Below, one piece after another: positions 25,224 to 54,854 of a stretch of 64,000 nucleotides of DNA. The position numbers were made by a program, and so were the translations under genes. Origin of the DNA: Schmidtea polychroa (Eukaryota); NCBI GenBank assembly GCA_044892525.1, contig CM097887.1, positions 14,446,001 through 14,510,000 on the forward strand, given 5' to 3'. The notes under the pieces were generated by a model, which saw only the letters and a program-made list of their open reading frames with translations, was not told where the DNA came from and did no database searches. Numbering within the stretch: the first letter of the stretch is position 1; the number at the start of each line of letters is the position of its first letter.

Positions 25224-25395
25224 GAGACGTAAGACCTTCTATCGGCCGTCAGAGAAGAAGAAGTCGAGTCTTCGGGAAAGAGTAGTCCTAAAGCAGGGCT
25301 CACCTGTTTTCTGACGTCTCGCCGACATAATACAGTAGCAACATGGAGCAATCCATAGGTATTATGTCATGAGAGCAATCATTTGGAGTACTGCT
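25224..25395 (+). ncRNA. Conserved structured RNA motif, copy R2
   Basis: GAC-GUAAG-ACC UUCUAUC GGC-CGUC; AGUAGUCCUAAAGCAGGGCUCACCUG; perfect 10-bp stem GACAUAAUAC/GUAUUAUGUC enclosing AGUAGCAA and a GCAA-capped hairpin. CAATCATTTGGAGTA is shared with R3. Confidence 0.75.
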
Positions 25396-25671
25396 TGAGG
25401 TTGGCCGAAATGCGAAAGATGTTAGTGAAAGAGACCACCATCCTCTAGACATGGATCGAAAAGTTTTATCGAAGTCAACCAAGCAGCGCTCCAACAATAT
25501 TATGAATACAATATATGTGATATTGAATTATATATGCATGGGTGAATCACTTTCAAGATACTTACAATATAATTTTTTTATCCGAATGGATAATCAGCTT
25601 TTATCAATAATAAATATTATGTTTCCAAATTCTTTTAACATATCACACACCCCAGGACCATTGACAATTAA

Positions 25672-27971
25672 CCCTTTGACGCTCATAAGCGTTGCCGGCA
25701 TTTTTATCGCTTGAAATATTAATCAATCGACAGATTTTAGTCCATTAGTGAGTATTATTTTCAAAAAATAATTTATTCTTTATTTTTTAGACACTACCTG
25801 GGGTGGTACATAAATACACCACTAAGCGATAATATGCAAAATATAGAATCAGTCTATTATATGATAAAGTGAATAACACTGACGTTGAGCATTCAGACAG
25901 AGGTGAACATCACATGAACTGCATTTAATGTTGCTGCGGCAATCATGTCTTCGGGTGCTGCAGTATGCTGCAGCATCGCTTTCTGTCTTCTGTGAATACT
26001 GGTAAATGTTGTGGTGTAGGACAAGCAGCATTACTCGGTCGAATTTTCTTTGAAGGAGGATTGGCGGATGTCGCTCTCTGACGACTACTGTAACGACCAG
26101 TGAGAGATAGCGCCACAGGTATGCGAAAGTCAAGAACCTTCATTAGGTTGCCCTCATTTAGTTTCTTAAAAATGACATAGGAATTACACACACCAATATC
26201 CAGTAGGTCAAAGAAAATGCGTAAGTAGAACTTCACTTTTGACCTTTAAGTAAAAAAATCAAAACAAACAATGTATGTAGAGTTATAATGTGCACAGAGG
26301 CTGTAAATTTTTGCTTACCTTCGGTCGATTCCATATGCCTCTTTTTGTTGATCTGCAATGTCAACACCTCCCATAATTGAATTATACGTCGAAACCATTT
26401 TTGGAACAGTTTTAGGCATTTTACCAGCCGTACCTCTTCTTCTTCTCATAACGGTCGTGGTTTCAAAAGGAGTCTCATAATTGGATAGAATAGTGACAGG
26501 ACGTTTGTCCATCCACTTTATTGATGAGATACTGCCATTAGTGCTAACGTAAGAGTAAATATCACCCTCTTTCATACGCTTGTTAGCACGTACATCATCT
26601 GGCAAGTGTTTTCCTGATGTTCTGATAGTACCAATAGCTTGAACACCGTTTTCACGTAAATAGAAAAACAGCTCTACCGAGGAGAAGAAATTATCCATTG
26701 CCAGGATACAGTTTGTGTTGTGAAGACTCTTTGCCAAATGCATTACCACACTTCCACCTAGACCAAATTGGCGACCTTCATTATAAACTTTGCCTTGATA
26801 CATGTCAAGTTCATGAACATATCCAGAGTGTGATGATGCTCGGACCCACATTTTGAATCCCCAGGGTATGGGTTTTCCTTTGACGTACTGTTTCATTGCA
26901 CTTTTCCCAGTGAACTTAATCATGTGTTCATCAATTGACATTTCATTTTCCATTTCCATTGCAGCTTGAAACGCTTTGTTGAAATGGTTTATTAGTGGAC
27001 GTACTTTGTACGCTCTGTCGTATTCCTGATTGTCTTTATGTGGCTGAAGAGCATTATCACTAAAGTGCAAATTCTTTAGGATAAATTCAAATCTTTTCAC
27101 TGTCATCACATCGGCAATTGCATCTACATGGAGATCTCTGTCAGTTGACCAATAGTCACGGAGATTTGGTAATCTGTTATAGCCCATAATTATGCATATA
27201 CCCAGAAATGCTTTTATCTCTTCACTTGTTACATCGAATATAATTCCCTGTTGTTGAGCATACAATTTAATTGTTCAATAATGAGTGTTACAAGATCTTC
27301 AAAATTTGTTGTGATTTCAAATGAAGAGTAGGCAGTTGCAGGTTCAATATCCACTTTCACTTTTCCGAAATCTACTAGTTTTGTAGGTGTAGGGAATTCC
27401 AACAATCTCCGTTTTTTCTTTTGCCATTTTATATTTAAAGCCGTCTGAATATAAAACATCTGAATCACGTTCTGAAATGGCAACAGAAACAAATATACGA
27501 ATTCGATTGAAATATATTAGGAAATCGAAATAATGTACCTGACTCATCAGATAAGTCTTTAGATTCCTCATCAACATCTATGTCTAAAAACATAAAAATA
27601 AAACTTTGGTCACCATAAATGCTGATTTTAATTTGTAGCTAGCTTATATACCTTCTATTATTGTTTCGTCGATACCCATTTCAATGTCATTTTCAATCAG
27701 GGTAACATCTTCCTCATCAAGGTTTTCCATTTCGTCCTCAGAATTATCCGCCCATAAAAGTGAAATTGCTTTTTGAGCACAGGCTCTTCTTGAGTGAACA
27801 ATTCTTTTTTCTTTTGACATATCCTATAATAAAAATCATAAAAAATAAATAGCAAGTGTTAAAATATGTATTTTCATTTTAATTATATTTCTGTGCTATC
27901 ACTAAGTACTATCAGTTTAGTAATTTAATAATGAACTATATAATACGCTAAATTTATGTTTACCGTTCTGT

Positions 27972-28054
<83 letters not shown>

Positions 28055-28410
28055 CACCAAGTTATTTCAGTTCTCTGAAGTACAAAAAAATAGTATTTAA
28101 GTTATTTTAATAGTCATTATGTTAGTTAAATCATTGTGAAATAATATAATATGAAAAACGTTTTCAAAAACAAAAGATTACCTAAAATAATCTGAGTAGA
28201 AGATAATGTCTCAAAATTCTGAAAATTTCAAATATTTAACGAGATCGTATTAACTAAAACAATGTTTTTATAGACACCAAAGATTCCAATGATAATCATT
28301 AGGCATATGAGAGTATTTTTATCAAAGGGCGAAACCAAATTATGTTTATTTATTGGTGAACTATTTTGTTGAAGACGTGGTACATATATATACTACAGAA
28401 CGTCAAAGGG
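25672..28410 (-). mobile_element. piggyBac DNA transposon
   Basis: TTAA at 25668-25671 and 28411-28414; TIRs CCCTTTGACG(C/T)TC; encloses a DDE_Tnp_1_7-type transposase. Confidence 0.92.
25849..27820 (-). pseudogene. Intron-containing piggyBac transposase (frameshifted)
   Basis: SIDEHMIKFTG, KPIPWGFKMW, MDNFFSS, YNSIMGGVDIADQ and C-terminal RCAYC..CSSCDVHLC..CY..YH. GT-AG introns after 27651, after 27538 and between 26319 and 26240; a 4-nt TGCA duplication near 25968 shifts the Cys-rich domain. Confidence 0.85.
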
Positions 28411-28414
28411 TTAA

Positions 28415-28790
28415 CCTATTAAATGAGTTTATTCCAACGCTGAAAATCTTTACCATTGGAGACAGTCTAGAAATTTTCTTAGAAGAAATTATAAGATTTT
28501 ATGATTAAAGTCAAACTCCAATTCAATTGCTAAAACGTTCATTAGAACATTCATATCAACAGAAGTGGCAAAATTATATGAAGTCGATTAAAAAATTGAC
28601 AGTTATAAAGAAAAATTCAGAAAAGCTTTCGAATATCTCTTAAATTTAGGAAGAGATTTAAATGAAGCTCTCCGTTACAAAAAGTTAATGAATCAATTCA
28701 AGACGCATTTAGGACCATTGATCCATAGGCAAAAAAATGTTTTAGGACACGAATTATTGAAAGAGAAATTAGCTTATTTTTATTGCAAAA
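28415..28790 (+). mobile_element. gag-like relic split by the piggyBac insertion
   Basis: Removing the element rejoins PGPLTIN-LLNEFIPTLKIFTIGDSLEIFLEEIIRFYD in frame; the later RTFISTEVAKLY..KFRKAF resembles the 21000-21100 relic. Confidence 0.45.
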
Positions 28791-29614: not shown

Positions 29615-31257
29615 CTACATAGAAAGAGGTCTAATAATGACAGTAACATTTTCCAGATGTTTCGTTTTGCCATCCGCCATTATAGAAAATATAAAATTAT
29701 CCTTATCAAAATGAGTCGGCATAAACGGAAAGGTCTCATTGACGAATCCATGAACGTAATGAACCGTAATTGGGATGAATATCTCAGTTGGCGCTGCGAT
29801 TGTCAAATCTATTTCATAGGATAATTGAAAATAGCCGGAGGTCATATTGAACGAGTATTTGATTGGTTGACCTTGTAATGCTCTCGGGTAGGTCCTGGCG
29901 AACATTTTGACAACATTTGGAAGAATCGCTCCGTTAGAATCGAAGAAAATCGAATCCCAATATGTGAAACTTTGATAATATTCTTCGGTTTTCTCCAAGA
30001 CTGCCTCACATTCTTGAGTATTGATAGAGTGAGGGTTGCCATCTGGAATACATATTCCGAATTCTGATAACAAGGATCCTCCACCGGTTTCATTGATGTT
30101 TTTCGCGGCCGATTCAAAAACCTAAATGTAGAAATTAAAATTTCAAGTGAAAGAGAAATATTTATAAAATAGAAAAATAGGAAATTGCTACACTAAAACA
30201 AATGCAAATATTCATACATTCTTCATAAAAAAGTTCTGACAAAAAATTTGATCTGATGGCGTATAATTTGTTGTCGGATCCATACTGTTCAATAGGAAAC
30301 AATAATAATGATAGGAAAGTACTGATTTATCCCGTTGTTGAAGTCGACCAGGAACTCGGTTGAATCCAGTTCCGAGATTTCCGGTGCTTGGATAGTAAGC
30401 CCCTATAGTCACTGGTTCATAAAATATTAGGGTATCATTATCAATTGTTCTAATTGCATCTACGAGTATGTCATAGATAGGCAAAAGGTTCTCCCTACCA
30501 GCATAACCTAAATGATGAAGACCATCAGAAATGATAATGGTCACAATATCAAACCTGGTAAAAGTAATTCCATATTCTCATAAAAGTTACCAAACCAAGG
30601 CTCATTGATCAATTCATATCCCATAACCGCCGTGTTATTCACGAATGACCGAGCTATGACTTTCCAAAAATTACTCCAATGGTTGGTTGCAATTGGATTT
30701 TTATACAGATTTTGGAAACCATCCGAGGCTGCATAGGTTATATAGTACGTTGCCCATGAATAGGTGGTGTTTATGTCTAGAGGGTGTGGAAACTTGTTAT
30801 CACCTTCCGGTTCAGGAAACTGGTTAACCAGCCATAACGGTATGCCGTCATAGAGGCTGTATTTGCTGGACATTACATCTTGATGCATATCCAGGAAGCT
30901 GAACATTCCATATTGGTTCAATTTACCAACAATCGTTTGTAAAATCCCAATATATGTCTGATTGAACTGGCCTTCATTCGGTTCAACTCCAGACCACATC
31001 GTTCCTAATCTGACGAGATTGAATCCCCATTCTTTGTATAGTTTCAGCCGCGTATCATTCAATATTTGGCTGTCATACCACGGGATACTTTTCTGAACGG
31101 AGTTAAATCCATGGAACTTTAGAATTCTATTATAATTGTCAACGAATTGGCCTTTCTGGTTTACTGCTATTCGAAATGAAGACGTTTTAGGCTCAACACG
31201 GGCGTGCAACGAAAGCAATGAAAGAATAAATAAAAAAGAACCTAATTTAGTTTCCAT
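29615..31257 (-). CDS. Endoglycoceramidase-like GH5 glycoside hydrolase, copy B (3 exons, same structure as copy A)
   Basis: Near-identical reverse complement of 6312-7951 with the same introns; intact NEP and SEFG motifs. Confidence 0.9.
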
Positions 31258-31659
31258 CGCTTGTATTAAAATATGTTTAATGAATCTTAGTATTATATCA
31301 ACACTCACGTGATAGATCATCTAATTATATGAACCACTTATTACGGATCATTACAATTACTTTGATTTAATCCTAGGCGCTATTTATCAAGGTCAGGTAT
31401 TTGATATTTCGTGAATTATGCAATGAGTGATGTAAAGTGACATATAGTAAGTANNNNNNNNNNNNNNNNNNNNNNNNNNNNNNNNNNNNNNNNNNNNNNN
31501 NNNNNNNNNNNNNNNNNNNNNNNNNNNNNNNNNNNNNNNNNNNNNNNNNNNNNNNNNNNNNNNNNNNNNNNNNNNNNNNNNNNNNNNNNNNNNNNNNNNN
31601 NNNNNNNNNNNNNNNNNNNNNNNNNNNNNNNNNNNNNNNNNNNNNNNNNNNNNNNNNNN

Positions 31660-31993
31660 GACACCGAAAGATATGTGCTTTAGAAAAAACGTCGTCTATT
31701 GCATCACATGCAATGTATGCAAAGAAATCTACATTGGAAGTACACTCAGGACCTTGCACCAAAGAGTTAAAGAATATCTAGATCCTGGTAGAAAATCCTC
31801 GATAAACAGACATCTCCAACAATGTCAACCAACAGAGGAAAGAAAAAATATTTCAATCGAAATCATAGCTAATGGAAACATCCAAAATAAAAATGTCAGA
31901 TTCAAAGAAGCAATTCTCATCATAAACAGACAGCCAAAAATCAACACTAAAGAAGAAATCAATGAAATTATCAATTTTATCTGTTGTCATTGA
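31660..31993 (+). mobile_element. Penelope-like element GIY-YIG endonuclease (3' fragment after a gap)
   Basis: KNVVYCITCNVCKEIYIGSTLRTLHQRVKEY...SSINRHL...RFKEAILI...PKIN, typical of PLE endonuclease domains. Confidence 0.85.
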
Positions 31994-33481: not shown

Positions 33482-35084
33482 CCGTGTTTTGCCGAATAAA
33501 AGTCATGACTTGTATTTATTTTTTTGCGTAAAATTGTTTAAAAATACAAAAAAGACTTGTTATTGGGAGTAGTTTTTTTATTCAAAAATAGCCGTTTCGT
33601 CGTCCATATCATCTTCAATAATCTGACTGGATGCACTGATATCCTGATTACGTAAATTATTAAGTGCAGCTCTGATTTTTTCGCCGTATATTTCATGATT
33701 GTAAATTAAAGTTTCACTAAAATTCTGATTGTATAATAGATATGATGCGCGTAGCCCATTATTGATAATATTCGTATTAATTTTTCCCCAAGAATGCCGA
33801 ATTCAACTCTCTACTTCAACCAAAGGCGGTTTTATGGCATTTCCCTTTGCATTTTTGATCAATATAATTTTTTGTTCAATATAATCGTTTATTTTATCTC
33901 TCAATCCCAATTTAAACGGACTATTTACTGCCACATCCATAAGTTGCAAAAAACCAGTCATCCCCGACGGAATCATTACTTGATCAATGTTTCTGGTCTG
34001 CAAAAATGATTTCATCTGGGTAGCCCGATGCGTAAAGGCCGAATCCCAAATTAGCAAACCTCTTTTTTGTCCCCTAAGCACCAATGGGAAATTGATGTGA
34101 ATCCATTTTTTGAGAATGTCCTGGGTGGACCATGCTTTCTCCGACTCCATTATATTCAAACCATACCTAACTATAACAGTATCCTTTTTCCCCTTAATAA
34201 TGGCTGTGGGAGATATCTTGGTTCCATTTAATCGTACACCCAGTATACAAGTTAGCCGGCAACTTTCATAACCTGTGGATGGAACTCTTATTGATGAAGC
34301 TCCTCGCATTTCAATGGTTGTCTGCGAACTTTCACCATAGAAAATGGCCGTTTCATCCATTGAAATACAAAATTCGGGATCATATTTTGATATATCCAAG
34401 CTATCAATAAAAGCTTTATAAGACAGAGTACGCTCGACTATATCATCATCGGACAGTTTGAATAGCGTCGTTGATCGTCTCAATGAAAGGTCATATCGTT
34501 TCATAAAGCCAGACAACCACTTCCCAGAGGCGGAGAAACTCGATTCGGGATTACTAGAATTTTGTTGTGCCAATCTAAGTGCATATTCTTGGATGTCAGA
34601 ACGCTTTACGACTAAACTTCTAGATCTGCGCTCGATAATCCAGTCAAATATGTGTTCCTCAATGTCAGAAATTACCAATTTTCTTCCTCCGCCTTGAGCT
34701 CTGGTCTGTCTCCCCGCATTCTTTAGCGATTGGAGATTCTCTTCCTCTGCTTTCCAACGACGAACAACTCGCAGATCAAGATTTACTTTTGCACAAAACT
34801 TTGCAAGGGTCATGCCGGATGTACGGGATTCACTGAGGATTCTAAGCTTATAATCTATTGTATAAGCCTTTCTGGAACTCTTCTGTGCGTTCATGGGTTA
34901 AAAAATGTCTACTAAATGAATATTGAATCAACGACATTTAAAAATCATTATAAAAAACAATAATACAATAGTGTATGAATTAAAATAGGACTTGTAATAG
35001 GAGTAGGGCTTGTAATTATTTATTTTTTAAAAAATGAACAATGGGCTTGTATTGGGAGTATGACTTTTATTAGGCAAAACACGG
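33482..35084 (-). mobile_element. pogo-like (Tc1/mariner superfamily) DNA transposon
   Basis: 25-bp TIRs CCGTGTTTTGCC(G/T)AATAAAAGTCAT with TA on both flanks (33480-81, 35085-86). Confidence 0.92.
33578..34894 (-). pseudogene. pogo transposase, 438 codons with a single TGA (probably W) at 33803-33805
   Basis: RKAYTIDYKL and FSASGKWLSGFMKRY (CENP-B-type HTH), MDETA, LLIWDSAFTH, LQLMDVAVNSPFK; reading continues VES*IRHSWGKIN...IFE to TAA at 33578. Confidence 0.85.
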
Positions 35085-35280: not shown

Positions 35281-35281
35281 G

Positions 35282-35338
<57 letters not shown>
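35281..35338. repeat. (ATT)n microsatellite
   Basis: Pure trinucleotide run. Confidence 0.95.
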
Positions 35339-35759: not shown

Positions 35760-35790
<31 letters not shown>

Positions 35791-37660: not shown

Positions 37661-38654
37661 GGCGGCCTCTATGAGCACTTCACTCAATCCAGCTGACAAG
37701 TGACTGAAGTATTACGTAGTCCATTAGGTAAGAAAACATGTAGGCCCCTTTGCCTTTGACTTGGTAATCTTCAGTTCACTCAAAATCATAAATAAAAAAT
37801 CATAATAGCATAAAAGTTATGATACGATATTTACTATGATTTCACTCGCTATTTTTTGAGATAGTTCCCGATCAAAATATGAGATGAAGGCAGACAACTT
37901 TGAATGATGAACTAGTTGTAAGGCTAAAGTACGCCTTACATTTGGTCACGAGTCAAGTTACCTGTTCTGATTTTTCTGAATCAGGTCAAAGTTAACGAGA
38001 GGGAATTCGTGTGGACTCAGGTAATGTAAAAATATTGCGGTCAAATTAGTTAACAAAATATCTGGTCACTGGGTGCTAGACAGTAACTTAAAATATGAAA
38101 AGTCGCTGTCAATGTATAGTAATCGCATTTCTACCATTTTCCCCCATATGCTCAAAACGAAAACCATACTCAGTTAATAACAATCACTTGGAGATCCATA
38201 AAGAAATTGTCAAAACAAGAAATAAAGGTAGATCCCTGCTCAAATTTTTGAAAGATAAAAATATTGATTAGCATCAAAAAATTGAGACCATAGTTAAATG
38301 AATAAAAAATACCAATAAGCTCAGAAATGAAAGTATATACAAAGCGATGTTCTATAGATAGTCATGAATCCGTAAGTGAAAATGCAATGAGGAGGAGATC
38401 TAGTAACGGAACTCACCTTGATATTGAGTTTCAGTGACGGTGTACTTGATGGAGACTGTTGGGTCCTATATTTGTTCTTTCGACATAATTTCGGTAAACA
38501 ACAAAGATATGATTAAATTTTAATACATAACCCTAATAAACGGTTATCAGATTATGTATTTATTGTTGGCGTATGTGGAGAAGAAAGAAAAATATGCATG
38601 CCTTTCCATCACACCTATCAAGCATCATCGCTCCGTTATACATTTTCTACACAT

Positions 38655-38858
38655 ACTCCAAATGATTGATTGCATATTCCCACATATGAGCCCATGGTGA
38701 TGTTCCATGTTGGTGCTGCTCACACGGGTCGGAAAAAGGTTAGCAGGTGAGCCCCTGCCTTAGGACTACTCCTAACCCTTTCTCGGTTCGGGTCCTACGG
38801 TGCCTTAGAAGGACTTACCCACATACATGCGTATCACTCGGTCTGATCCTGGTCCAAA
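38655..38858 (-). ncRNA. Conserved structured RNA motif, copy R3
   Basis: UUGGACCAG...GUAAGUCC UUCUAA GG; GGUUAG-GGAGUAGUCCUAAGGCAGGGGCUCACCUG-CUAACC; GUGUGAGC-AGCACCAA-CAUGG..CCAUG-G-GCUCAUAU. Confidence 0.75.
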
Positions 38859-39102
38859 GGAACAACCTTCAACCCTAATTACCTTCATTCCGCAGCATTA
38901 TCTCATCTACTCTAATTGCACAAACAAATATATGAAAGCTCGACAAAACTGAAATCAAACAGAAAATTTTATTGACACTGAAACGATAAAAATATCATTA
39001 CCACTAACAGATCAACAGCAGTCAAAAATATATAACATTAGCAGAATTCACAGGTAATTTACAACTCGATGAAGAGAAAATCAAGCTCAATTGTACGTCG
39101 CA

Positions 39103-39864
39103 TTAGACCAAGTCATCCCCACCGGCAAGCATCTCATCTATGTCGACCGGTAATCGGCTATCTACAATATATTTGATGCCCTCGGCCGGAACAATGCGGA
39201 AGACTTCTTTCGAGGGGATTGAATGGGTGGACGATATTTCTTGGATTTTCGATTGCGCCGCCGATAAGGACGCCTCGAGTGCTGTCATCGCATCTCGGCG
39301 TTTTTGATTCTTCTCGGCTCGAGTTGGCCGTTTCCGTTTGCGGGTAGTCGGGGGGTTTTCTGTGTTCGTGGTGCCGATTGGTGCTACCAAGATTGGAGCT
39401 AAGATGGGATCGGTAGGTCCACCTGTCTTTGGCTGGTGACTTGACAACACTGGGGCTGGAATGGGCGGCAGTCGTGAACCGTGCCCCTGACAGTTCGAGC
39501 TGGAAGATGTAGAAGACTGGTGGTGAAGGGGAAAGACATTCATCCCATCCAGAACGGGAAATTCTCGCACCCGCTTAGCCAATTCTGCCTCCGTATATAC
39601 CTTATGGAGGGCTTCTGATTGTGCTTTGATAGTGAGCCGCTGGCAACGGCTTTCCTCTAGCAGGCTGTCCCTGCAATGCTCTAATCGGAGAATTTTCTTG
39701 CGTTCCTCTTTCATTTGTGGCGGGGAGAACCACGTTCCTTCATAGAGATCAATTCTCTTTTTGAGAGCCCCGATATATAAGTGAAGTTGGGCGATATCCG
39801 CGTTCTTGTCCGCACAAGAAAAACACGGGCGAAGTTCTTTGGCGTTGTTGGACGATGTAGCCAT
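39103..39864 (-). CDS. Orphan EGTWFSP-family protein F3 (253 aa, intact)
   Basis: PCFSCADKN, LKKRIDLYEGTWFSPPQMKEERKKILRLEHCRDSLLEESRCQRLTIKAQSEAL, Pro/Ser linker, RKRKRPTRAEK, ALEASL, VDIDEM; TTTTCTAG acceptor directly before the ATG. Confidence 0.75.
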   Translation of the reverse strand: MATSSNNAKELRPCFSCADKNADIAQLHLYIGALKKRIDLYEGTWFSPPQMKEERKKILRLEHCRDSLLEESRCQRLTIKAQSEALHKVYTEAELAKRVREFPVLDGMNVFPLHHQSSTSSSSNCQGHGSRLPPIPAPVLSSHQPKTGGPTDPILAPILVAPIGTTNTENPPTTRKRKRPTRAEKNQKRRDAMTALEASLSAAQSKIQEISSTHSIPSKEVFRIVPAEGIKYIVDSRLPVDIDEMLAGGDDLV

Positions 39865-42800
39865 CTAGAAAATCAATCATTGTTTATGTTTACTCGAAAA
39901 AACCTCTATCAGAGCGATAAAATCAAAGTTTTGGGGCATGGTTTTGGAGTTTTATCAAACATACCACCCAACGATGACCCACACACCTCTTCATCCATCC
40001 CTATTCGCAGTCATTCAGTTGCAAGCATTCAAATCTCTTCACCTGATTCGTGTAAATTAAGAAAAGGAAACGGGGATTTCATACACAAAATTCTCTCTAC
40101 ATAAACCTCGCCCTTTGGGTTTGCTTTCGGATGGGACAATTCCCAGGTAAAACTCGTCTTTTACTTTATTCCCTTCAACCTTGTTCCCCTTAGTATATTT
40201 TTATTTAAAAATTTGCCGATATCATTATAGCAATCCGTCGACGTAGGCGGGCGTAAAGATTACCGAAAGTTAATTCATGGCGACTGATAATTATTACTAA
40301 TTTTGGCTCGCTCAAAATTATAGAATTAATCATGTAATCAGGTAAAAATTTAGTTCTAAATTTAAATCTAATTGATTTAAATAACGCGTCGAAAGCGTCA
40401 CCACGGAGACATCTACTTGTAATTATGCAATACCATTGAATGTTTAGGTGTGTCGATACTATTAGTGGCATCTGTGCCTGTGTGTTGGCTATCACCGCTA
40501 ATGAGTGTTTTATGCTGTTATGAGAGGGTATTAGATGTTGAATGCGTGGGGAAAATCCCTTCCTATACACCAGCCTACTGTCTCGCTGCTCTAGAAAAGT
40601 TCATATTATCATGCCGCTATTACATCACCAAAAATCGTGGATTTACTTTTACACTGCCCTATGTAGACTTGACTGTGGTGTGCGTGTGTATGTGCATTCT
40701 CAAGTCGGAATAATAGGGGTTGCGTAATAGGTTCCTCAAGCAGCCGTAGACGAATCGGAAAGTCAGATTAATCAATCTGAGTAGGCGACAAATTAGTAGA
40801 TTATTGAGTAAGCTCGATGTTATTATCTAATTCTCTTTCACGATATTAATTCAGGCCAATGACTATCAGCTTATCCATTTGACATTTCCCCAGAAAACCG
40901 ACACGTTATCTCTTTCTCTAGGACATTATCAGCTATCTCCTGTCGACTAACTCTACGCTGGCTAATGTAAATCAACTGATTTTGTTATCGTTGGCAACTA
41001 TTGCCTGCGAGCTCGAAGTGAGGATTTTGATAATTTCACTGCAAGATGTTTACTTCCCTGTCAGCGAGAGATTTTTTATCACTGGCATTGGCGATTCAAG
41101 GACGACAGTTCAATCGTAAGAGTACATCGATAATGGATGTAGCCGCTAACGTCCTGACGGCACAAATCAGACAGAGCCTTGCAAATGCAGTACGTTACCG
41201 AAAAATCGTTGGATTTACTCGCAATCTATGGTCAACACTGTTCTTTCCTAACTACGTCGATCGACAGGCTGAATATCACGAAAAATTTTCTCCTAGCTAT
41301 GTGGATTATTATCGAATCAGTACGAACGTCACTGCCTATCTCGATCTGAATTGCCTGCATTCGGAATTTAAATCATCTCTACAACTATTGGAAATCTCGG
41401 TGTGACTAAATGAACCGATGGTACGCTCTATGGACGATCGCGCTTGATGAAGGAAATTTCACTTCTCAACTGGATTTTCCACCTACTGAGTTTCTTCACC
41501 ACTCATGACACACCCAAGAAGGCATTCATTGCTGCCACCTTCTCGCACCGTCATGAGGGACCAATCAACTCGTTTCCATTCAATTAAATCAACAATAAAA
41601 TAATCAAACTGAATGATAGGTAAATGCATAAATAAAATTTACCCGGCGACCATATCATTTGGACTCCAAGTATGATGTTGCTCATCCTACGTAATCGAAA
41701 CCTCATCGTCTCCTTGGTGGATCTCTAATATGACAAATATCACTCTCTACAAATATCACATTCTCCTTTCAGCATGTTCGTGATTTCTTATGCATACCAA
41801 CCTTTCCACGGTGGTGTCCTCTACTGCAGTACAATTCCAACTCGTCCACATCATACTGGGAGCTCTCAGATGGTACAGTCGCCGGTACCATGAAGAAAGG
41901 CAGCTTTTCATTTAAATAAATTTATTGTATGAAATTGTTTTTATTATATTTATAACAATTAACGAAATTAAACTAACAACCATAAATAAAGCAACTGTCG
42001 AGACATACCTTGAGTTTCGAAAACTGGAGTTAAATCGGTTGAATTTAAATTCTTTCCTGAATGGATTTGTGGTTTGGCCTCTATATATTCCTTCCTCGGT
42101 TTGGTTTGGTAGTCTCTGAACTAGTTCGCTGTAGGATAATTTAGTTAAAGGTTCCGAAATCTGTAAAGTCTGTAGAATATTTTTTAAAAGTGGTCATAAC
42201 GAACCAAAGTTTACCTGTAGAATATTTTTTAAAAGTGGTACTCTACAGATATTTTCCGTTCCTTATATATTATTTTTCGTCCAATCAGGACACGACTTGT
42301 TTGTATTTTTACTATTTATTATTATTTTTATGTTTTTTATTATAATATATTAGATTTTAATGACTTAACTTATTTCTTATTATTATTTTATTTATTTTCT
42401 TATTTTTATTATTTTCCTCCTATTTTTCCTGTGGATTTATTGCTACTTTATTGTAATATAATTTTTTGTTTTAATTAGACTTAAAGATAGTTTTATTTTT
42501 ATTTATTTCTTAAATTTCTCGTTTATTTGTTGTCACTTTTTTACTTATTCTATTCTATTTCATCTGCTGGGTCCTAAATCGCTTTATTTCTAAATCTTAC
42601 GGGGTTTATTGGGTTTTATTTAGTTTGTTTTACTTATTCTTATTCTCTTATTGATATTTTATTGTTCCTTTTTGATTTATTAGTGAGAATTTGATGGTAC
42701 TTTATATTTTTATTTTATTTCGTTTATTTTTCAAGGATTACTTTTCTATTCGCTCCAGTTTTCGAAACTCCGCGTTTTAGCCCAACATTATATTTCACTA

Positions 42801-43714: not shown

Positions 43715-46146
43715 ATTATTTATTTAGTCTTGTTTTTCATTAATTCTTATAGTTAAAATTTTGTTTAACTCATTTTGGAATGTCAACAATTTTAGAGTGG
43801 CAGCCAAATTAGATGAATGAATAATAATTATGACGTGACATTTTAGGTATGACCCCGATCCGTTCTCTATTTGATTTTGGAATTCCGTTTAACACCAGCA
43901 AAATTCAGCCTCTTCACTGGCGTAGAATTTCAACTCAAAACTTATTGACGACTTTACGCAGGCCGTAAGCAATATTATTGCTATTATAATAAGTAAGAAC
44001 TGAAAAATAGCAAAGTATATATAAAATCAGTAGTTAGTGTCAATGTGTATCCCAGCCCGGCAGCCTACCTCAGGATGGGGACACTTTAGTACAAGGGCTG
44101 CATGGTATGAAGTGAATTAATTAATATTGAGGATAGCTATACAATAAAAGGATTTTGGAGGAGAAGCACGATGTTTCCCATTTACTAGTTTAATTATACA
44201 TATTTGTTTACAAAAATCAACGATAAAATACATGGTTTTTGAAACTCTTAATTTCAACATATTTTAGATACAGTACTTTTTTCTGGAAAAAGGTTCCTGA
44301 ACGTATCTGTACTATCCTTTATATGCAAAAAAGTGACGCTGAAATTAGCTAACAAATAAAATAATTATGCAGGACACAAAATATACACTTATTACCTACG
44401 ATAAGAAACGATTTTAATAACGTAGTATATTAATGGCGTATATTTACCGTGAGTGTGTTTTATATAATAGTAATAACACATAGGAATCACGGAGTTATGA
44501 TTCACTCGCTTTGGCGTACGACTACTACTTTTAATTTGATTGTAATTGACTTTATAATTGACTTTTCATTGTAATTGAAATAAGGAAATAATATAAGAAC
44601 TTTTTTCCAATTTCATCACTGATTATTTTTTTCCATTGAATTTATTAAAAAAAAGCTTGAAGACTATAAATCAGTAATATTACTTGAAGCTCTCTTTTTA
44701 ATAAATTAGGAAATAACACTAGATTTGATATCAATATTTTTTTAATTAACCCACTGTTGGGCTAAAACCGAGGATTGAGAGTTTGTTTTAATGGATCGAA
44801 AATACCTAACACAAAAACCGCACAAAGTTGAAAAAATGTATGATCAAGGTTTAAACTAAAATAAATTGCATAACACATTAAGAATCAATAAAACCCGTAT
44901 AATAGAATAAAGAGATAAATAAATTTTTTAAAAAATTGAAACTAAAAATTTCGAAGGAAAAATAATAAAATGTAAAAAAAGAATTAGTAGAAAATTATTT
45001 AAACTATAATATTTATAAAATTAAATCGTTGAAATAATAAAATTAATTAACATTATGTAATTTGTAAAGTTTATAGAATTAAATGGTTAGAATTATGTAA
45101 CTTATGAAATTTATAGAATCAAAGTGTTTAAATTAATAAAAATTAAAATAAAATTAACCAAAATTATTTAAATTATAAAACTTATAAAATTAAATTATTA
45201 AAATTAATAAAAAATTAAATAATTAATTAATTAAATCAGTTAAATTAAAGAATAAATAATTGCACACACTCATGCTACTACAATCTAATTGGGTATAGTA
45301 GCAGAGAATGCGTAGGCGTATAATCAAAATCGGTATAAATACCTATGAAAAATTTAGTTAATTTAATCAAAATCAAAACTAGTTTCAACATCACAACTTA
45401 TTTAGACAGTTACAAATTCAATTTTCTGACATTTAGCAAAAATTCGCGGTTAACTCTCAGTTCTGCGGTCTATGCCATCGGGTAAGATTGAATTAAATTT
45501 GGCAATTTTATGTATTGTATATTTATGTAATGTTATAAGCTAATAAAATTTTATATACAATTTCGTTTAGTTAATTATTAATTTTTGTTTGTTTTTTTAT
45601 CGTTTACTTCTAAGTTTTAATATTTATAATTTATATGAATGTTATGTGATTCAATTTTATGGATAATTTTCTGATTTATGGATGCCCTCCAGCTAGGGAT
45701 ACATCTGTGAACCATTGGCCAAAAGACTGATGGACAGCGAACGGTTGACCAGTTTGAAACATCGTTTTATAGGATATAGTTAGAGATAGGGCCGATGGGA
45801 GAACATATATTCGTTTTGGATAGTTTGAAGCATTGTTTTGACTAGAAATAACATAGGACGGGTTCGTTTTAGTAGAACATAGGTTGGAATCGGAAATACA
45901 GGCAGATCCCTGCTAAACTCTTTTGAAGAAAAAGTTGAATTTTTACAAGTACGGCAGAGCATATGGGGTGACATTTATTAACTGGGAAATAAATTATCTA
46001 CAAATATTACAGACAACACATAATAACTTATAAATAGAAAAATAAGGGCGGATCCCTGCGCAAAATTTTGGAAAATAATAATAGAAGACATCTAGAAATC
46101 AGGACCATAATTAAATGAAGACATGTCAATAATCCAACAATAGAAA

Positions 46147-46304
46147 TGGACAATGAATAATGACGTAAGACCTCCTATCGGCAGTCTAGAACTCGAAAAG
46201 AAAATACAATGAGGAGTAGTTTTAGCAATAGACCTCACCTGCTCATTGATTTTCGACCATTGTGTACAGTGCCAACATGGTCGTCGCCATGGGTACACAG
46301 ATGG
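46147..46304 (+). ncRNA. Conserved structured RNA motif, copy R4 (no recognisable upstream ORF)
   Basis: GAC-GUAAG-ACC UCCUAUC GGC-AGUC; AAUGAG..GAGUAG..CUCACCUG-CUCAUU; UGUGUAC-AGUGCCAA-CAUGG..CCAUG-G-GUACACA. Confidence 0.7.
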
Positions 46305-48864
46305 CTCCGGAACTAAAACGATGGATGATGGTACAGGATGACGATTTCTATTCATAGGTGGCAGTAGAATTTCGCGATAAGTCAGAAGATGCTTTAGGTT
46401 CATAGTAATAATGTTGAAAATCAATAACTAAGATCATTGTTTCGACTTTTATTTATAAATATTTTATTATTCTCCTTTTTATGCTTGGATGTGATGAGAC
46501 TAGATTGTATAGATGTTTGTGTACCGTTGGCACTCATCCTGGCACATCAGGGTGGTGATTGGGTATTCGATAGAATGGGTTGAGCATGAAGCTTTTGTTT
46601 GAATAAATGACAGTTGTGTTGAGGTCTCGATATTCGGGAACACTCAACTTAACTGGTTCTTTTATATATATATATATATATAACTAAAAAATATATATCA
46701 AAATAAGTCGATAGATAAATATTTATTGAAACTAAAAATTACCCAAATTGAACAATCGTAATAACACTATCAATTTCGTGCAAAATTTCTGAATTATACT
46801 TTTATAGAATACCTTCGAATCTTCTGAAATGCTTGCAATATGTGTTTTTGTTTATATGTTGTATCGTGCGTTCGTATGAAGATTTTACTGTAGTTTATTT
46901 AAATATTTGTGAGACTTTTCTGTTCTGTCTCGGGTATTGAATATTTCGCGGGATTTACCTTTGAAATTACTAGAGCGCTAATTTTTGGTCGACTAAGACT
47001 AATTTTTTGTCGCTATTTATACAAATTTTTAGGGCAGCTGTTATTGTAAAAAATAATTTAATATTTTATTTTCATATTTTAAGAATACTTATAATTTAAA
47101 TAATTATTATTTTTAAGTCTTATATTTCATTTCAAAAATGTTTTTAAGAACACTTATAAATTAATTATTATTTTCAAGTCTTTACGAATTAAGAAATATT
47201 TTCTTTGAGAGTACTTATAACTTTAAGGAAATATTTTGTTTTTAAAATGTTCTAACTGTTTTTATTAAATTAATATTCTCTTAATTAATAAACGTTAATA
47301 ATTAAATTTTTTTTAAATCCCTCCCCTGATTATATGATTGAAGTTTTATGTGAAACAAAAACACGAAAAACAAATAATAAATAGATTAAAACAGAAACCC
47401 AATTATTTACAACCAATAAAACATAGATAAAATAGGCTTTTAGATATATACACCCGATAAAATATACATCATTAATCATACACAAATAATCAGACAGAAA
47501 TTAATCAGAATAATAATAAAGGATAAAATATGCACAGATTGTTAGCTAGTTCGAGGATAATATTTGATCAATAATATTTACACAAATTGTCAATTGAAAG
47601 ATTTTTCTGGATTGTTTTTGGATTGAATTGGGTTGCATGGACTTGGATTGTTGATTGTTGGGAAATTCGACCGTCTATCTACGCTCTTCGGCGTATACAT
47701 TGATTCTGTATCTCTTTGGCCCTGTTCTATAGTACCTGTTGAGATTAAATGTGGTGATGTGCCTACCTTCATTATCCAAAAGTTGGAATAAACCGAGCAG
47801 CTTTTAATTGACATGCAGACGAATCGAAACAAGCCTAATGTTAGGACACCAGTTTCAGAATATCAATGCCGGGAATTGCATAAAATATAAATAACTAGAA
47901 TTAAGATTGTTACATGAAGTTGAATTGTCTGATCGTAATCTTGCAAATAGGCTAATAGAGTTATTCCGAATAAGATGCACCTAGTGGAGATGTGGTGGAA
48001 AACGCGAATTTCCACAAATAAAACACTCGCGCACGAATTACACTATCTGAGTAGTTTATCATGAATCCAACCAAGCTTCGAAGAGGGTGCAGAATCGTCG
48101 AACAATAGCGTGTCGAAAAACTTTTCCACGGTAACTCGATCAAGACACCGGAAACGTCACTCATATTCTCGCGTGTAAATGATAACGTACAATCTCCATC
48201 CGGTTAAATTAAGCCACTCTCCGGCTATCCGTCGAAATTTCAGTTTTCATCTTTATCGTAGTAAACAGGATGTAGACAAGACCGATGAATTTTGGCATAA
48301 ATAACTTCAATCCGATTTCTACATGATACTGTGATCGACAGGATGAACACAATTAAATAATGATTTTTCGCAAAATAAATAATTCCACCACCGACAAGTA
48401 CAGAATAATAACAATGCAAGTAAGTAATACTGAAAGTCACAAAATCGACAGAAATCTCATAATTTACTATTAGTCGTTTCATTTTTTGAATCTTCCATAT
48501 GATGCCAAGGTATAAGGTAGAATACCAGTAATATTCCTTACACAATTCATAGACGAAACCATTTGATTTCCAGTAATACTACTCCCAGACTGATTTTTTT
48601 TAATTAAATTGAAAACATTTCATGAATATCATAAGTCTTCTGTCATTCACCGCTCAAATTTTATCCTCGATACCCAAAAGTTTTCCATGAAACACAGGAA
48701 GACGTTGTCAAGAGAGTAGTGGACAGGGATCAATACTAATCTAAAGAACAGGAAAAGCAGTGCTTAGGATATGAGCTTATCTCCTTGTCCCATCTAATAA
48801 GGCTCTGAGTGACCACCTATCTCTATACTATCAAAATTCATTCCTTGAATAATCTTTGTTTTTT

Positions 48865-49596
48865 GAACCAAATTTGCCAAGGACTGGCCCGAAGCCGTGC
48901 TTTTCTTGCGCGGACAAAAATACAACTATACGCCAGCTGTCAAGATTGGCAGACTTAAGAAACGTATTGATCTACTAAAAGGAACGTGGTTCTCCCCACC
49001 ACTGATGAAGGAGGCCAACCAGAAGATACTACGCCTGGAGCACTGTCGAGAAGTTTGCTAGAAAAAAGTCTTTGCCAAAGTCTCACAATTAAAGCTCAGT
49101 CAGAGACCCTTCATCGCATTTATTCTGAAGCAGAATTGAAAACAATGGGTCACCGATTTTCCTGTCATCGATAAAGATAATATTTTTCCGGTCCACCATA
49201 TGACCAACGAAGCTCGTACCCGTTCTACATCGACTTGTCGCAAACATGGACCCCAAGTGTCATCTTCGCCTATTTCAGATGTTGTCTTCGTTGAAACTAG
49301 TGTGCTCCCGGCCAAGGCGTCGAGTGCAATCTCTTCTCTACCCACTCCGGCATTTCCGCCGACAACTTTGAATCCGCTGAATTCTAGAAAGCGTAAGCGT
49401 ATCACCTGTACAAAGCGCTCAAAGAAGAGACTCGACAAACTAGCCATTGCTGAAGCAACATTGTTTGCAGTTCCTGCTACCGTAAGAGCTGGTAGTGTCT
49501 GATCCTCCTCAGTATAGAGTCGTACCCGCAACTGGTACTCCACTGATCATCGACCCACCGTTGGGGATCTTGAGAAAAGCCGAAGATGCCATGTAA
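48865..49596 (+). pseudogene. EGTWFSP-family pseudogene F5
   Basis: Fragments EPNLPRTGPKPCFSCADKN / LKKRIDLLKGTWFSPPLMKEANQKILRLEHCR / SLLEKSLCQSLTIKAQSETLHRIYSEAELK / RKRKRIT..AEATL / YRVVPATG..IIDPP; several frameshifts and no ATG. Confidence 0.8.
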
Positions 49597-49840
49597 CAGC
49601 TAGAGCGTTTCTAGCCATCTACAAAGCCGTATATAGTCCTGGGCTGGTGGATTATCTCAATGATCCCGACTTCTCATATATCGTGATTTGATGATTTGAG
49701 GCATTGTAGCGTCTCGTATGTTGTGATTTCAATATAACTCGGTGTCGTTTACCCCGCCTTATTTGTCTTCTGAAATTGTAAGAGATTTGGTCTGGCGGTG
49801 AAGTAGAAAGGAAAGACAGAGTAGTTAGAGATAACCTCTA

Positions 49841-50007
49841 CTGGACCAGAGGTCTTGTCAGTGTGTCAGTATAGAAAGATAATGCGGGTGTAAGTCCTTC
49901 TATTAGTATTCCAGGACCCGAAAGGCGAATGTCATGAGAGTAGTACTAACACAGGGGCTCATCTGCTCATCTATAGCACCAACATCACCATTGTCATGGG
50001 TACACAG
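49841..50007 (+). ncRNA. Conserved structured RNA motif, copy R5 (partly decayed)
   Basis: CUGGACCAGAG, GUAAGUCCUUCUA..AGGACCCGAA, AUGAG-AGUAG..GGGGCUCAUCUG-CUCAU, AGCACCAACAU..CAUGGGUACAC; 5' strand of the last stem lost. Confidence 0.65.
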
Positions 50008-50741
50008 TTGGTATAGAAATAACAATCATAATGGGACTCTGATTAATTTTATTACCTGTTGATTTAATGCAAATCTATTGTTAATTAATTTTAATTAAAT
50101 TACAATAAATAAAATATTCTTAAATTAGCTAAATATTCTAGAAAAACATCTCAGGTGACATTTCAAGAAATAATAGTTTGGCTAGAGAGTAACGGTTTCA
50201 CTAAAACTTATCTTATTGAGAATTAGATTCGTGATGAGTTTGATTATGCTTCAGCCATGCTGGAACGTCATGCAGAAGTTTTTATAAATATTGTTTCGAA
50301 TAACGGCATTTAATTATAAATCGATAATTATGTAGGGTAGTGAAAGGGAAATTTTTGGAAGTGTGACATACGATTTTTGCAAAGAGAAACGAATGAATAC
50401 GAGAATAGAACGTTTTTCCCCACTTGTAACCCACCATTTTTATAAATATTGTTAAACAATTTTCATTCCCAAAAAATTTGATTTTAGAGTTATATTGTAA
50501 AGTATTTTTATTTTCCAGCACTTCTTTCTCACTCTTATACAAACTTTTAAAGATTACTTGAATTAATTTATAAAAATCTTTTAATTAAAAATTTTAAAAT
50601 AATTAATAAATTAGAAAACAAATTATAAACTAAATTGATTATAAAAATAAATCATACGTCAAATTTCATTTTAATTGTTTTGTTTGAATTTTTAGATTAT
50701 AGTATATAACTAAATAATAACTGGAAATAATAATAATAAAA

Positions 50742-51105: not shown

Positions 51106-53632
51106 AGATGTTTAAATTGAACACTGTTTTTTAGAAGTGTTAATTAATAAAAATTGTGTCTTATTAATGTAGTGTATTTTAATTATATTTTTCCTGCAAT
51201 TGTTTACAAAATTCTTTTTGACTACTTTATTTACATAATTAAATTCGAGTAATTGCCGTAGGTTAGAAATAATGCTTTCAATTTCCAGTCAAAAATACAG
51301 TTTATAGGATGATAAATATATAGATAATGTTATTACTGTAATTATGCAATTGATTTAACTAAAAATTTACAATAGTTAAATTATAAATTTTTTCATTTAC
51401 TCTTATGACAGAAAATGTTCTAGTTTTAGTGACAACAATCGATATGTAAACTAATAAAATTCTACAAATGCCTCATAAATCAAAAGTAGTCATTTTGTTG
51501 ATATGTAAATTATCTAAAAATAGATTTGTTTGTAATGCCTTTTTGAAATTTGTATTTAAACTTTATTTGGATTAAATTTCAATTATTTTCAAACTAAAAT
51601 AGTTAAACAATTGAAATTTTTTTTAAATATTTTATTTTTACAAATTAATTTATTTCAGTTATTTTATTTAACAATCATAATTTTTCTTGTAATTTCAACT
51701 CAGATTTGGGACAAATTTATTATATAATATTATAATTAGGGTTGCTTAGTTCATAAAACAAATAAATTTTTATTTATTTTTCTACATAATGAAAGATTAA
51801 ATTGTAATAAATCTAAGCTAAAACTAAGGCCAATGATATAAATGTGTAGGAGCAATTAGACTCCGTCGGAGAGAGAAAATGTTGAAACGGGAATGATGAA
51901 TGGAGACTCGGAATAATGTTGGACTATGCGTCAATTTTACTGAATCAAGCACTCAAATTTGACCAGAGCTAGGAACATGAGGAATTAGTCCCGGGAATAG
52001 ACAAATGGGAATGGGTTGTAACGAGCCAGGTCGAATAAAGTTCCGTAGAAACTACATCTGAAGAGGAGGATAAATTGAGGATGTGAGGTAAGGGGTGTGA
52101 TCATTTAGAATAAGATTACTTAAGAAAGTTAGGTATTGGACATGCAGCCATTTAGAATAGAATTGCTGAAGAAGAGGAGACTCTAATAGTTATCGAGGCA
52201 TGAGACACTGTCAAACGAAATTAGAGTCCTGCAGATTATGTGATCACTATAATCATAATTTTGTTTATTTTATTTTTAATTTATTTATCCGTAATATGTA
52301 TGGCCAGACCCGTTTGGGCGAACTTTTGGGTATTGCTGGCACTTGTGCCGATGGTAATCAGATGATTCTCGCAGATCGGCACACCGGAGGTACAGGTCTG
52401 ACACGAGAGATTTTGAAGTTCGTGTGTTTTGAAGCCAATGGATAGAGAGCAGAGGTTCTCCACATAATGAACCCAGATCTACGAATACATAAACGAAAGC
52501 CTTCCATCAATCAGCCATGATCGTAAAGATAGAATTCCACTAGCATAGAAGCCATAATTCCAACGGTCGTACTTGATTTCACCGAAACCTTTATCCAGAC
52601 GCGTATTTCCTGAAAGGGATTCGACTCAGTCATCGTCGTATGTCACCTTCTAACAAATTGACCTGTTCCGTCCAGAAAACTCGATTTTCCACGGCTAATT
52701 GATATAACCATTAGTTATTTAGTTATGAGATTCTGGAGAATTAGAGAACGCAGAATGAACATTAGAATCTCTATTTATGATGATCATCTTGCATCACCTT
52801 CTTGATAAGTAAATTGACATAACACCCGGTCTATGCTAGAACCGTTCACAGATTGTTGATATGTTCCATCCTGCCAGTTCAGAATAATCGCCGCTTTCCA
52901 TTATCATAAGGGAATGTAAACAGGAAGTCATCAACGATTCGTTGTAGATCTATCCAGATTGTTTATTTTAAAGCACTAATGACACGACGTAATCTAATCT
53001 TAAAATCAACTACATGATATCGTGATATGTACGAATAAATTTGCCTGTTAACTGAGAAAGGATATGGTCAAAGCTGTAGGTTAGATTCAATAATGATGTC
53101 GAATAATAAAATGAACCGTGGTCTTAAAAATGCACTACTATAAAGCTAAAGGTTTTTAAGGTAACAAAACGGGTTGAGGTGCGAAGGTCGTCCCTGTAAC
53201 ATTTGTGTCTATTTTCTTTTATTTATTTTTTATACTAATTATTTTCAGGTCCAAAAGTTGTTAATTGCGTACAACAAATTTCACGATTAAGAAAATTAAG
53301 GGTACTCTAGAGTGGTTTGCTCGGGATGTTGTTTATATCTTATGCTGTTTGGTATGATCACATAAAATCAGGCCCATTATGAAATGATTTATAAACCTTT
53401 GTAAAACCCACCGAACTGTCGAAAAGTAAAATAAATGCCCACGACCTGCGATCAAATCTCACTCCCAAATAAACGTAATTATATAATTGAGTTCGATAAA
53501 ATGCGACGGAAAGGGGTCACATTATCCAGTAGCGATAATATTTAAGGAGGATTGATTAAGTATATGCGTATGAGGAATGATGTAAAAATTTATTTGGTAA
53601 AGATCTTGATTTCTTTTTTAAATTTCCAGCTT

Positions 53633-54422
53633 ATGTCGGAACCGAATCTACCAGCACGCGCCCCGAAACCCTATTTTTTGAGCGCCGACAAAATCGCGAA
53701 CTTGCGACAATTGAATGAATATATAAGGGTCCTGAAGAAGCGTATCGATAAGCTAGAAGGCACGTGGTTCTCCCAGCCACTTATGAAAAAAGCAAACAAG
53801 AAGATCTTGCGACTTGAGCACTGCCGTGACAGCCTGCTCGAGGAGAGCCGATGTCAGCGGCTCACCATCAAGGTCCAGTCCGAGGCCCTTCACCGAGTCT
53901 ACTCAGAAGCGGAATTAAAACGTCGCACCAATGAATACCCGCTAGCGGACAAATTAAAAACTTTTCCAATCCATCACCAAACAGACGAGACTAGTGTCCA
54001 GTCCACCTCCAAATGCCACGGTCATGGCCCAGAGACACCTCCTATCGTCGCTCTGTCATAGTTAGTATAGGACCTACGGGAATGCAGTCGGTCCACACTA
54101 ATGTCGCGACATCACCAGTCTTACCAACAAAGCAGCAAGGCATTCCGTTGCAGTATAATTCCCGGAAAAGGAAACATCTGACCCGAGTGGAACGGTTAAA
54201 AAGCGTGGAGACGAGATCGCCGCATTAGAAGCCACTCTGTTTGCCGTCAAGGAGGCTAGCAAAAATCCGCCCCCGCGTAATCTCATCGCATCACACACAA
54301 CGACTCCTTATCGAATAATTCCGTCATCTGTACCTATACTCTTTTGTGACCCACACTTGCAGACAGACATCGACACCATGGTGGAGGAGTATGAAATGCC
54401 ATCGATAAATCCAGATTCGTAG
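53633..54422 (+). pseudogene. EGTWFSP-family copy F6 (two frameshifts in the 3' half)
   Basis: MSEPNLPARAPKP..ADK..LKKRIDKLEGTWFSQPLMKKANKKILRLEHCRDSLLEESRCQRLTIK; later frames give NSRKRKHLTRVER and KRGDEIAALEATL..YRIIP..DPHLQTDIDTM; TTTTTTAAATTTCCAG acceptor 3 nt before the ATG. Confidence 0.8.
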
Positions 54423-54672
54423 CCAGACGAAAACCTATGCTCGAAATAGAGGCAGCTGTAAGCATCTGAATTGATGTGTGTTGAGTAACAAAATAGTGTG
54501 AGCCAATTAGTTGATATCCTTGATGATTGTGTGTATATTTTGTATTGGATTTAATATAATTTGTTGGAAAATGACTTGTGTTATCACGTTTTTGTCATGT
54601 GAGTTCCTACCGGAAGGTGTTTTTCTCCAAATAAGCGGTCATACTGGAACGAGAACTTGAAAACAGTCTTAC

Positions 54673-54854
54673 TTGGACCAGAGGCATGTTATAACTGACA
54701 GAGGCGAGTAAAATGGATGTAAATCCTTCTACGGCATTCACGAACCCGAATGGTGAATACTGTGAGGAGTAGTCCTAACACAGCGTCTCACCTGCTCACA
54801 GATTCCAACCCATGTGTACAGTACCAACATGATTCGTCGTCATGGGTACACATG
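54673..54854 (+). ncRNA. Conserved structured RNA motif, copy R6
   Basis: UUGGACCAGAG; CC UUCUAC GG; UGUGAG-GAGUAGUCCUAACACAGCGUCUCACCUG-CUCACA; CAUGUGUAC-AGUACCAA-CAUGA..UCAUG-G-GUACACAUG. Confidence 0.75.

Follow-up and report, generated by a model that had tools for sequence, protein, structure and literature searches.

A selected three-hairpin RNA fold at the 3' ends of the long terminal repeats of Burro-type giant Gypsy retrotransposons in Schmidtea polychroa

The window analysed here is a stretch of 64,000 nucleotides (nt) from the planarian Schmidtea polychroa (assembly GCA_044892525.1, contig CM097887.1, positions 14,446,001 to 14,510,000 of the forward strand). It contains repeated copies of an RNA fold of about 150 nt with three hairpin domains. 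A search with a covariance model of 40 copies gives eight of them, R1 to R8, at E<=4e-5; at E<=1 there are nine matches, one of which is a chance match. Every copy traced is part of a long terminal repeat (LTR), whether solo, 5' or 3', of Burro-type giant Gypsy retrotransposons. The first-pass annotation of this DNA, whose stated range (positions 25224-54854 of the window) leaves R1 and R8 outside, missed that the copies are not independent RNAs. They are the 3' ends of LTRs, beside the primer-binding site.

The copies in the window represent several families of these LTRs. R1 (154-300, minus strand; 107.6 bits) belongs to family A and lies in the 5' LTR of its element, which is about 5.4 kb long (90-5548, minus strand). 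The primer-binding site of this element, complementary to the 3' end of tRNA-Pro, begins 8 nt past the LTR end (64-81, minus strand), and the gag, MATH and fusion open reading frames (ORFs) run past the left edge of the window. R2 (25219-25373, plus strand) is a family E copy without the GRACCC box described below. Its solo LTR (22755-25496, plus strand), recognized by its LTR ends and the target duplication ATAT, contains an ORF remnant at 24490-24993 and an AATAAA about 414 nt before the LTR end. R3 (38677-38828, minus strand; 140.2 bits) is a family B copy in a solo LTR delimited in the same way (38564-42787, minus strand; target duplication ATAA). This LTR shares 92% identity with that of a gag-env-pol element with two LTRs. 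R4 to R8 reside in decayed or truncated LTRs. R4 (46155-46307, plus strand) is in a family D LTR with its start at 44755; no 3' end was found for this LTR. R5 (49880-50014, plus strand) has an internal deletion and stands behind the remnant of an LTR ORF (about 48895-49502). The LTR around R6 (54709-54860, plus strand; 146.7 bits), of family G, is decayed and ends at 54965 (...GCCCAACA); a matching 5' end and a target duplication were looked for, and neither was found. R7 (38329-38465, plus strand) is degenerate, with 23.2 bits, and probably belongs to family D, judging from the similarity of its upstream sequence to the LTR of R4. R8 (63431-63580, minus strand) is family-A-like, with an LTR end at 63360. 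Across the genome, which is AT-rich, 196 profile matches yield 180 full-length and 155 distinct copies. First-look searches with family queries return 881, 2372, 435 and 1555 candidates.

The fold has three domains, which in R6 occupy 54716-54739, 54761-54800 and 54811-54854 (plus strand). Domain I is made up of two short helices flanking a 4x1 internal loop, with the terminal loop UUCUA(U)C. The stem and loop described in the first-pass annotation are present. The domain is larger than the 2-3 bp given there: a second helix of 3 bp, which covaries, closes it (columns 8-10/30-32, 84% paired in the 40-copy alignment). The linker that follows is mostly GRACCC(G); in R6 it is GAACCCG (54742-54748, plus strand). 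Domain II has a covarying outer stem, a G.G mismatch that is U.U in family A, a 1x3 loop U/CAC and an inner helix AGUYY/RRGCU that covaries as C-G, U-A or G-C. In domain III, the outer stem covaries and encloses an 8x1 loop, A(G/U)YACCAA opposite a G, and an inner hairpin. The ACCAA in this loop is nearly invariant. All of the domain II and domain III stems named earlier are present in the window and pair. For domain III these are at 201-194/168-161 in R1 (minus strand), 25324/25359 in R2, 38725/38691 in R3 (minus strand), 46261/46293 in R4 and 54811/54846 in R6. The covarying stems of domain II stand, and the sequence GAGUAGUCCUAA, proposed as its constant core, does not; it is exact in only 3/8 copies and is replaced by the A-G-U-Y-Y helix with the 1x3 loop. 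Separately, a GGACC word is conserved 20-60 nt upstream of the fold in R1, R3, R4 and R6. It falls by eye within a small hairpin loop in families B and G and is complementary to the variable region of tRNA-Pro.

The three-hairpin RNA is well supported as a real structure under selection. In the 40-copy alignment, 90.3% of 1346 cells are paired and 27/34 pairs show changes on both sides. None of 500 shuffles reaches the observed pairing, and slid controls give 35-42%. These controls ignore the relatedness of the copies, and three further tests were therefore added. Simulation along the tree from complementary root pairs gives an expected pairing of 69%; the observed values, 90% for the 40 copies and 92% for the 155 distinct ones, are reached in 0/300 simulations. 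The second test compares variants in families A, B, D, E and G, with family C and unassigned copies excluded: the pair is kept in 20/24 variants common to at least three copies vs 49/132 private variants (Fisher p=3e-5); variants found in two copies, of which 12/28 keep the pair, are excluded from this comparison. On the sense strand there are 509 G-U cells vs 140 A-C cells, an excess which indicates that the RNA sense strand is the structured one. The tree null, the variant test and the G-U excess together back the earlier claim that covarying helices around fixed loops reflect selection on RNA structure. The top 30 column pairs of the covariation test contain no clear tertiary or pseudoknot signal.

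The host elements are of the Ty3/gypsy class in every feature tested: LTR ends, target duplication, primer site and pol order. Homology among the copies stops sharply at ...CAACA or ...CACCA, and 3/20 extended loci start with TGTT(G/T)GGCT and have a 4-bp target duplication. Young copies are paired on the same strand, at a spacing of about 26 kb in family B and 33-37 kb in family A. Five two-LTR elements from families A, B, C and D, read piecewise, all have LTR ends TG...CA, 4-bp target duplications (ATAG, AAAA, CTAG, ATAA and TTTA) and a primer site 8 nt past the 5' LTR. Four of the five are of the autonomous type, and a Pfam domain search of three of these gives, in varying sets, zinc-knuckle gag, env-pol, MATH, fusion glycoprotein, reverse transcriptase (RT), RNase H, integrase, ankyrin and BIR domains. 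By Pfam, families A and B contain gag and env-pol domains; in family C, env-pol is found by Pfam and gag by tblastn. The order of pol is protease-RT-RNase H-integrase in families B and C (Pfam) and RT-RNase H-integrase in family A. The fusion glycoprotein between gag and pol is a match to a Monjiviricetes fusion protein. The Gag proteins of families A and B are 34-36% identical, yet the fold is kept in both. Family D is represented by a young, non-autonomous element of 15.6 kb (L210:3807 to L211:9373) whose LTRs are identical at 1643/1644 nt. It has a gag-like ORF and neither env-pol nor an LTR ORF, and its fold is intact (145 bits). The layout of the elements is that of Burro/GYPSM1, an assignment by layout and not by identity to the Burro1-4 references.

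The fold keeps a near-fixed position relative to the LTR end. In six families with LTRs of 1.6 to 5.6 kb, it ends 60-130 nt before the LTR end. The LTR-end word is 50-150 nt downstream in 114/153 copies and upstream in 1/153. There are 609 exact LTR-end/primer-site junctions genome-wide and 0 for the control pattern, and the fold is present at all 30 of the junctions fetched. The primer site is the complement of the genomic tRNA-Pro(UGG). The tRNA-Pro(UGG) genes themselves form a large tandem array with a 475-bp period from C1:130901009, with 2190 pattern matches genome-wide. A CCAAT box, a TATA-like box and a donor-like site occur within the first 330-690 nt of five LTR types. With this promoter block and donor-like site near the LTR 5' end, the fold is predicted to lie in the 5' leader, and in five families it is downstream of the predicted splice donor. 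An AATAAA with a U/GU-rich tract is conserved 100-150 nt upstream of the fold in families B (15/22), C (5/5) and E (12/20), where it stands between the LTR ORF and the fold. Gag lies about 2.9 kb downstream in family B, 3.5 kb in family A and 8.6 kb in family D, and family B has a RING ORF whose start is at most about 450 nt from the primer site. Two further features were seen in these LTRs. The 25-28 nt preceding the first donor-like site recur just behind it in families B, C and E (read in L206, L214 and the window at about 23100-23300). A second conserved, hairpin-rich block is found upstream of the LTR ORF, at about LTR position 865-1000, and is common to families C, D and E and one further LTR (L214, L210, L212 and the window at 23587-23729).

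Homologous LTR ORFs occur in five of the six families, and this genome has about 5950 first-look candidates. Their product contains a CxxC motif, a long coiled coil with EGTWFSP, an Arg/Lys-rich helix (predicted at residues 182-213) and an acidic tail. In the window, an open ORF of 253 aa is present in the R3 solo LTR (39103-39864, minus strand), an open family A ORF of 166 aa that is homologous to the others lies at 495-995 (minus strand), and a broken ORF with the CxxC, coiled coil, EGTWFSP and basic helix lies upstream of R6 (53633-54400, end approximate, plus strand). In family G, the ORF is preceded by an acceptor-like site. The protein has no Pfam family at cut-off, 0/464 candidate homologues at E<=0.001 among proteins of similar length only, atlas matches under 0.9 and no viral fold match at E<=0.001. 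A second family A LTR ORF (1189-1650, minus strand) ends in RKRGRPRK, which we take to be AT-hook-like.

The window also contains other genes. They include a GH5 glycoside-hydrolase gene that is duplicated in inverted orientation at 6122-7953 and 29616-31439, with 97% identity between the copies, an ORF of 742 aa with a C2H2 finger (12501-14729), an innexin (16480-17789), a piggyBac-type transposase (26315-27274) and a Tc5/pogo transposase (33803-34897). An ORF fragment at 31451-31993 is presumably GIY-YIG-like.

The linker box GRACCC(G) is complementary to the 5' side of the T-arm of tRNA-Pro(UGG). At the linker, G(A/G)ACCC is present in 31/33 copies of family A, 27/27 of B, 18/20 of D and 31/40 of G; in family C it is present in 4/6 copies, shifted 70 nt upstream. 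It is the only 7-mer complementary to the unbound part of tRNA-Pro that occurs in half the copies of at least two families, and in a shuffle test restricted to the T-arm it is equalled in 4/400 cases. The complementarity gives a weak lead that the box may be a primer-activation-like signal that pairs with the T-arm. The primer activation signal and U5/T-arm pairing, as set out in parts of two retroviral papers, are a precedent for such a box (PMC3185550, PMC11251516), and the boxes of Ty1 in part of a third are a precedent for structured cis-elements near a primer site (PMC3592414). Other matches to the primer tRNA or its binding site also occur. ACCCCUA boxes complementary to the tRNA-Pro D-loop are found at the U5 ends of 18/20 family D and 13/40 family G copies. 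In families B, E and G, the primer-binding site begins with a sequence, GGGGCUCA, that also occurs in the 3' strand of domain II (for example at 38756-38749 of the window, minus strand). A switch between 5' and 3' LTR through this resemblance was considered, and folding gave it no support.

The fold lies in the LTR at a fixed distance from its end, its sense-strand pairing is under purifying selection, and it is retained in a non-autonomous family with gag only. The near-fixed distance to the LTR end and the survival of the fold without an LTR ORF or pol point to a cis-function tied to the primer-site region. From its location and the selection on it, we consider it somewhat probable that the fold is a cis replication signal on the genomic RNA, used for packaging and primer docking. 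This agrees with the earlier suggestion of a replication signal or protein-binding site, which is the best reading of the fold. Transcription would start near the LTR 5' end, as the CCAAT box, TATA-like box and splice donor suggest, which would put the fold past the first splice donor, within the 5' leader. Where it is behind the AATAAA, as in families B, C and E, the fold would be in U5 and occur once per genomic RNA, and a short LTR-ORF mRNA would not contain it. The roles of the fold on the genomic RNA would be to attract Gag/nucleocapsid for packaging and to assist docking of the tRNA primer. Protein or tertiary contacts may be made by the invariant loops UUCU, U/CAC and ACCAA. More speculatively, GRACCC(G) could pair with the T-arm of the primer after the primer site has opened the T-stem, as proposed for the signal of human immunodeficiency virus (HIV).

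A number of points weigh against this reading or against the structure behind it. The fold is upstream of the primer site, whereas retroviral packaging signals are usually found downstream of it. Few or no copies have the AATAAA in families A (1/32), D (0/18) and G (6/40), so that the R/U5 boundary is not fixed there. The consensus structure was drawn from the same sequences on which it was scored. In an all-against-all G-test with a tree null, 0/34 pairs are individually significant at about 27 effective sequences, so the per-pair test has either no power or no signal. When the eight copies are folded singly, their sense-strand z-scores lie between -3.9 and +0.7. The linker box is nearly absent from family E (1/20). 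The restriction of the shuffle test to the T-arm was chosen after the match was known; in the unrestricted test 343/3000 shuffled tRNAs (11%) match the box as well, and with one G-U allowed the box is matched by 26/400 shuffles. Duplex energies are mixed, with shuffles as good in 8-102 of 300, and in families C and D the best duplex forms elsewhere than at the box. In part of one of the retroviral papers, the signal of HIV is itself described as disputed (PMC3185550).

The fold might instead be the response element of the LTR-encoded basic protein, comparable to Rev, Rex or Tat with their RNA targets, and serve export of unspliced RNA or poly(A) read-through. We regard this as possible but doubtful. 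The presence of the coiled-coil/basic-helix ORF in five of six families is consistent with it, as are the acceptor-like site in front of the family G ORF, the protein's lack of a Pfam family, database homologue or viral fold match in the searches above, and the purine mismatch and asymmetric loops of domain II. Family D, which has no LTR ORF, could borrow the protein in trans. However, the position of the fold follows the LTR end and the primer site and not the ORF, the G.G mismatch becomes U.U in family A, and the protein could instead target the second conserved block, which lies upstream of the ORF. A DNA-binding transactivator could also have a coiled coil with a basic helix. If the LTR-encoded basic protein did bind the fold, Rev-like regulation would be extended to Ty3/gypsy elements. 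Control of 3'-end formation at the LTR, whether as a downstream element, as a structure for pausing or termination past the poly(A) signal, or as a stability element, is unlikely. In families B, C and E the fold does begin 100-150 nt past a conserved AATAAA with a U/GU-rich tract, but families A and D retain the fold without that AATAAA. Moreover, domain II folds almost alike in 5' and 3' LTR context in 4/5 elements, which leaves no obvious switch; the exception is one family A element (0.58 vs 0.92). An internal ribosome entry site (IRES) for ORFs past the primer site would suit a fold behind an upstream ORF in a very long leader, with the RING ORF near the primer site in family B. It is quite unlikely given that the gag frame is 2.9-8.6 kb away, that there is no Rfam IRES match and that no fixed start codon follows the fold.

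The invariant loop nucleotides within covarying stems also brought to mind a self-cleaving ribozyme of a new class, with the three invariant loops as an active site that would process the transcript at the LTR end. Such a catalytic RNA could, for instance, make the 3' end in families A and D, which are without the AATAAA, and its activity would have to be held off in the 5' leader. Domain I is, as we take it, superficially like P3/L3 of ribozymes of the hepatitis delta virus (HDV) type. A scan of the window with Rfam 15 gives no motif match on any copy, only two TA-repeat matches to mir-297 at E<=1, in agreement with the earlier statement that the RNA does not fit the consensus of hammerhead, HDV-like and several other known motifs. 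The ribozyme reading offered beside it fares poorly. An HDV-like descriptor run without a positive control has 0 matches on both strands of seven family representatives, and CUGANGA, of the hammerhead core CUGANGA...GAAA, is absent from the sense strand of 7/7 representatives, with one chance match on the antisense strand. Nor do the top 30 column pairs show clear tertiary covariation, and cleavage would presumably sever the genomic RNA between cap and primer site. We therefore hold a ribozyme to be very unlikely. Retrozyme, deltavirus-like and DNA-transposon readings were dropped in view of the two-LTR elements with primer site and gag-pol. Least probable of all is a structure that acts in single-stranded DNA during reverse transcription or integration. 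The fold would be among the first sequences copied from the primer and is near the integrase end, but the excess of G-U over A-C on the sense strand means A-C mismatches at those pairs in the minus-strand DNA copy.

Retroelements are expected to have structured leaders next to the primer site, so a feature of this kind is known. The fold is apparently uncatalogued and selected, and it fits this expectation as the structured leader end of a retrotransposon LTR. A literature search of listings and abstract openings, without supplements and without the original Burro description, gives no account of it, and the parts consulted of PMC8532177, PMC11410931 and PMC13524379 contain no description. Beyond this genome, there are 0 pattern matches in viral contigs and two in metagenome contigs, neither of which scores as the motif (best 9 bits), and a look-alike search in the other scanned genomes finds none. 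The fold is common to at least six families, including two whose Gag proteins are only about 35% identical, and the host elements make up much of a planarian genome. It offers a defined target of 150 nt for asking how giant env-bearing Gypsy elements choose their RNA and primer, and it is usable as a marker to annotate thousands of solo LTRs.

The fold and its host elements can be compared with several known systems. The pairs of Rev with the Rev response element (RRE), Rex with the Rex response element (RxRE) and Rec with the Rec response element (RcRE) are similar in that a small basic protein is encoded near a multi-stem RNA with asymmetric loops. They differ in that there is no sequence or fold likeness and that here the LTR itself encodes the protein. 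Among the ribozymes of retroelements, those of the HDV-like and hammerhead types are also repeated structured RNAs, and the 3-bp stem with a 7-nt pyrimidine loop is a further likeness; the fold has no double pseudoknot and no catalytic core motif.

Burro/GYPSM1 elements are giant Gypsy-like LTR retrotransposons of planarians (PMC6431247). As far as the passages of that paper go, they share with families A-C a length of about 30-42 kb, and with the host elements the zinc-knuckle gag, the MATH/TRAF, BIR and ankyrin cargo, and a fusion glycoprotein between gag and pol followed by protease-RT-RNase H-integrase. These passages mention no LTR RNA structure, LTR ORF or primer site. According to parts of PMC3185550 and PMC11251516, the leaders of HIV-1, HIV-2 and Rous sarcoma virus (RSV) are also structured and adjoin an 18-nt primer site, and the HIV-1 signal, the U5 contacts of HIV-2 and RSV and the predicted tRNA-Pro signal of human T-cell leukaemia virus type 1 (HTLV-1) are likewise set against the 5' side of the T-arm. 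The box here is 190-350 nt upstream, whereas in the retroviral leaders the distance is about 10-50 nt (PMC3185550, PMC11251516). Unlike these leaders, family E is without the box, and the fold matches no Rfam retroviral family. Ty1, as described in part of PMC3592414, is likewise an LTR retrotransposon in which cis-elements near the primer site are structured and pairing with the primer is extended. It is a Ty1/copia element that uses tRNA-iMet, with boxes 0, 1 and 2.1 inside GAG, downstream of the primer site (PMC3592414). The elements described here are Ty3/gypsy, their structured cis-elements lie inside the LTR, and their primer is tRNA-Pro.

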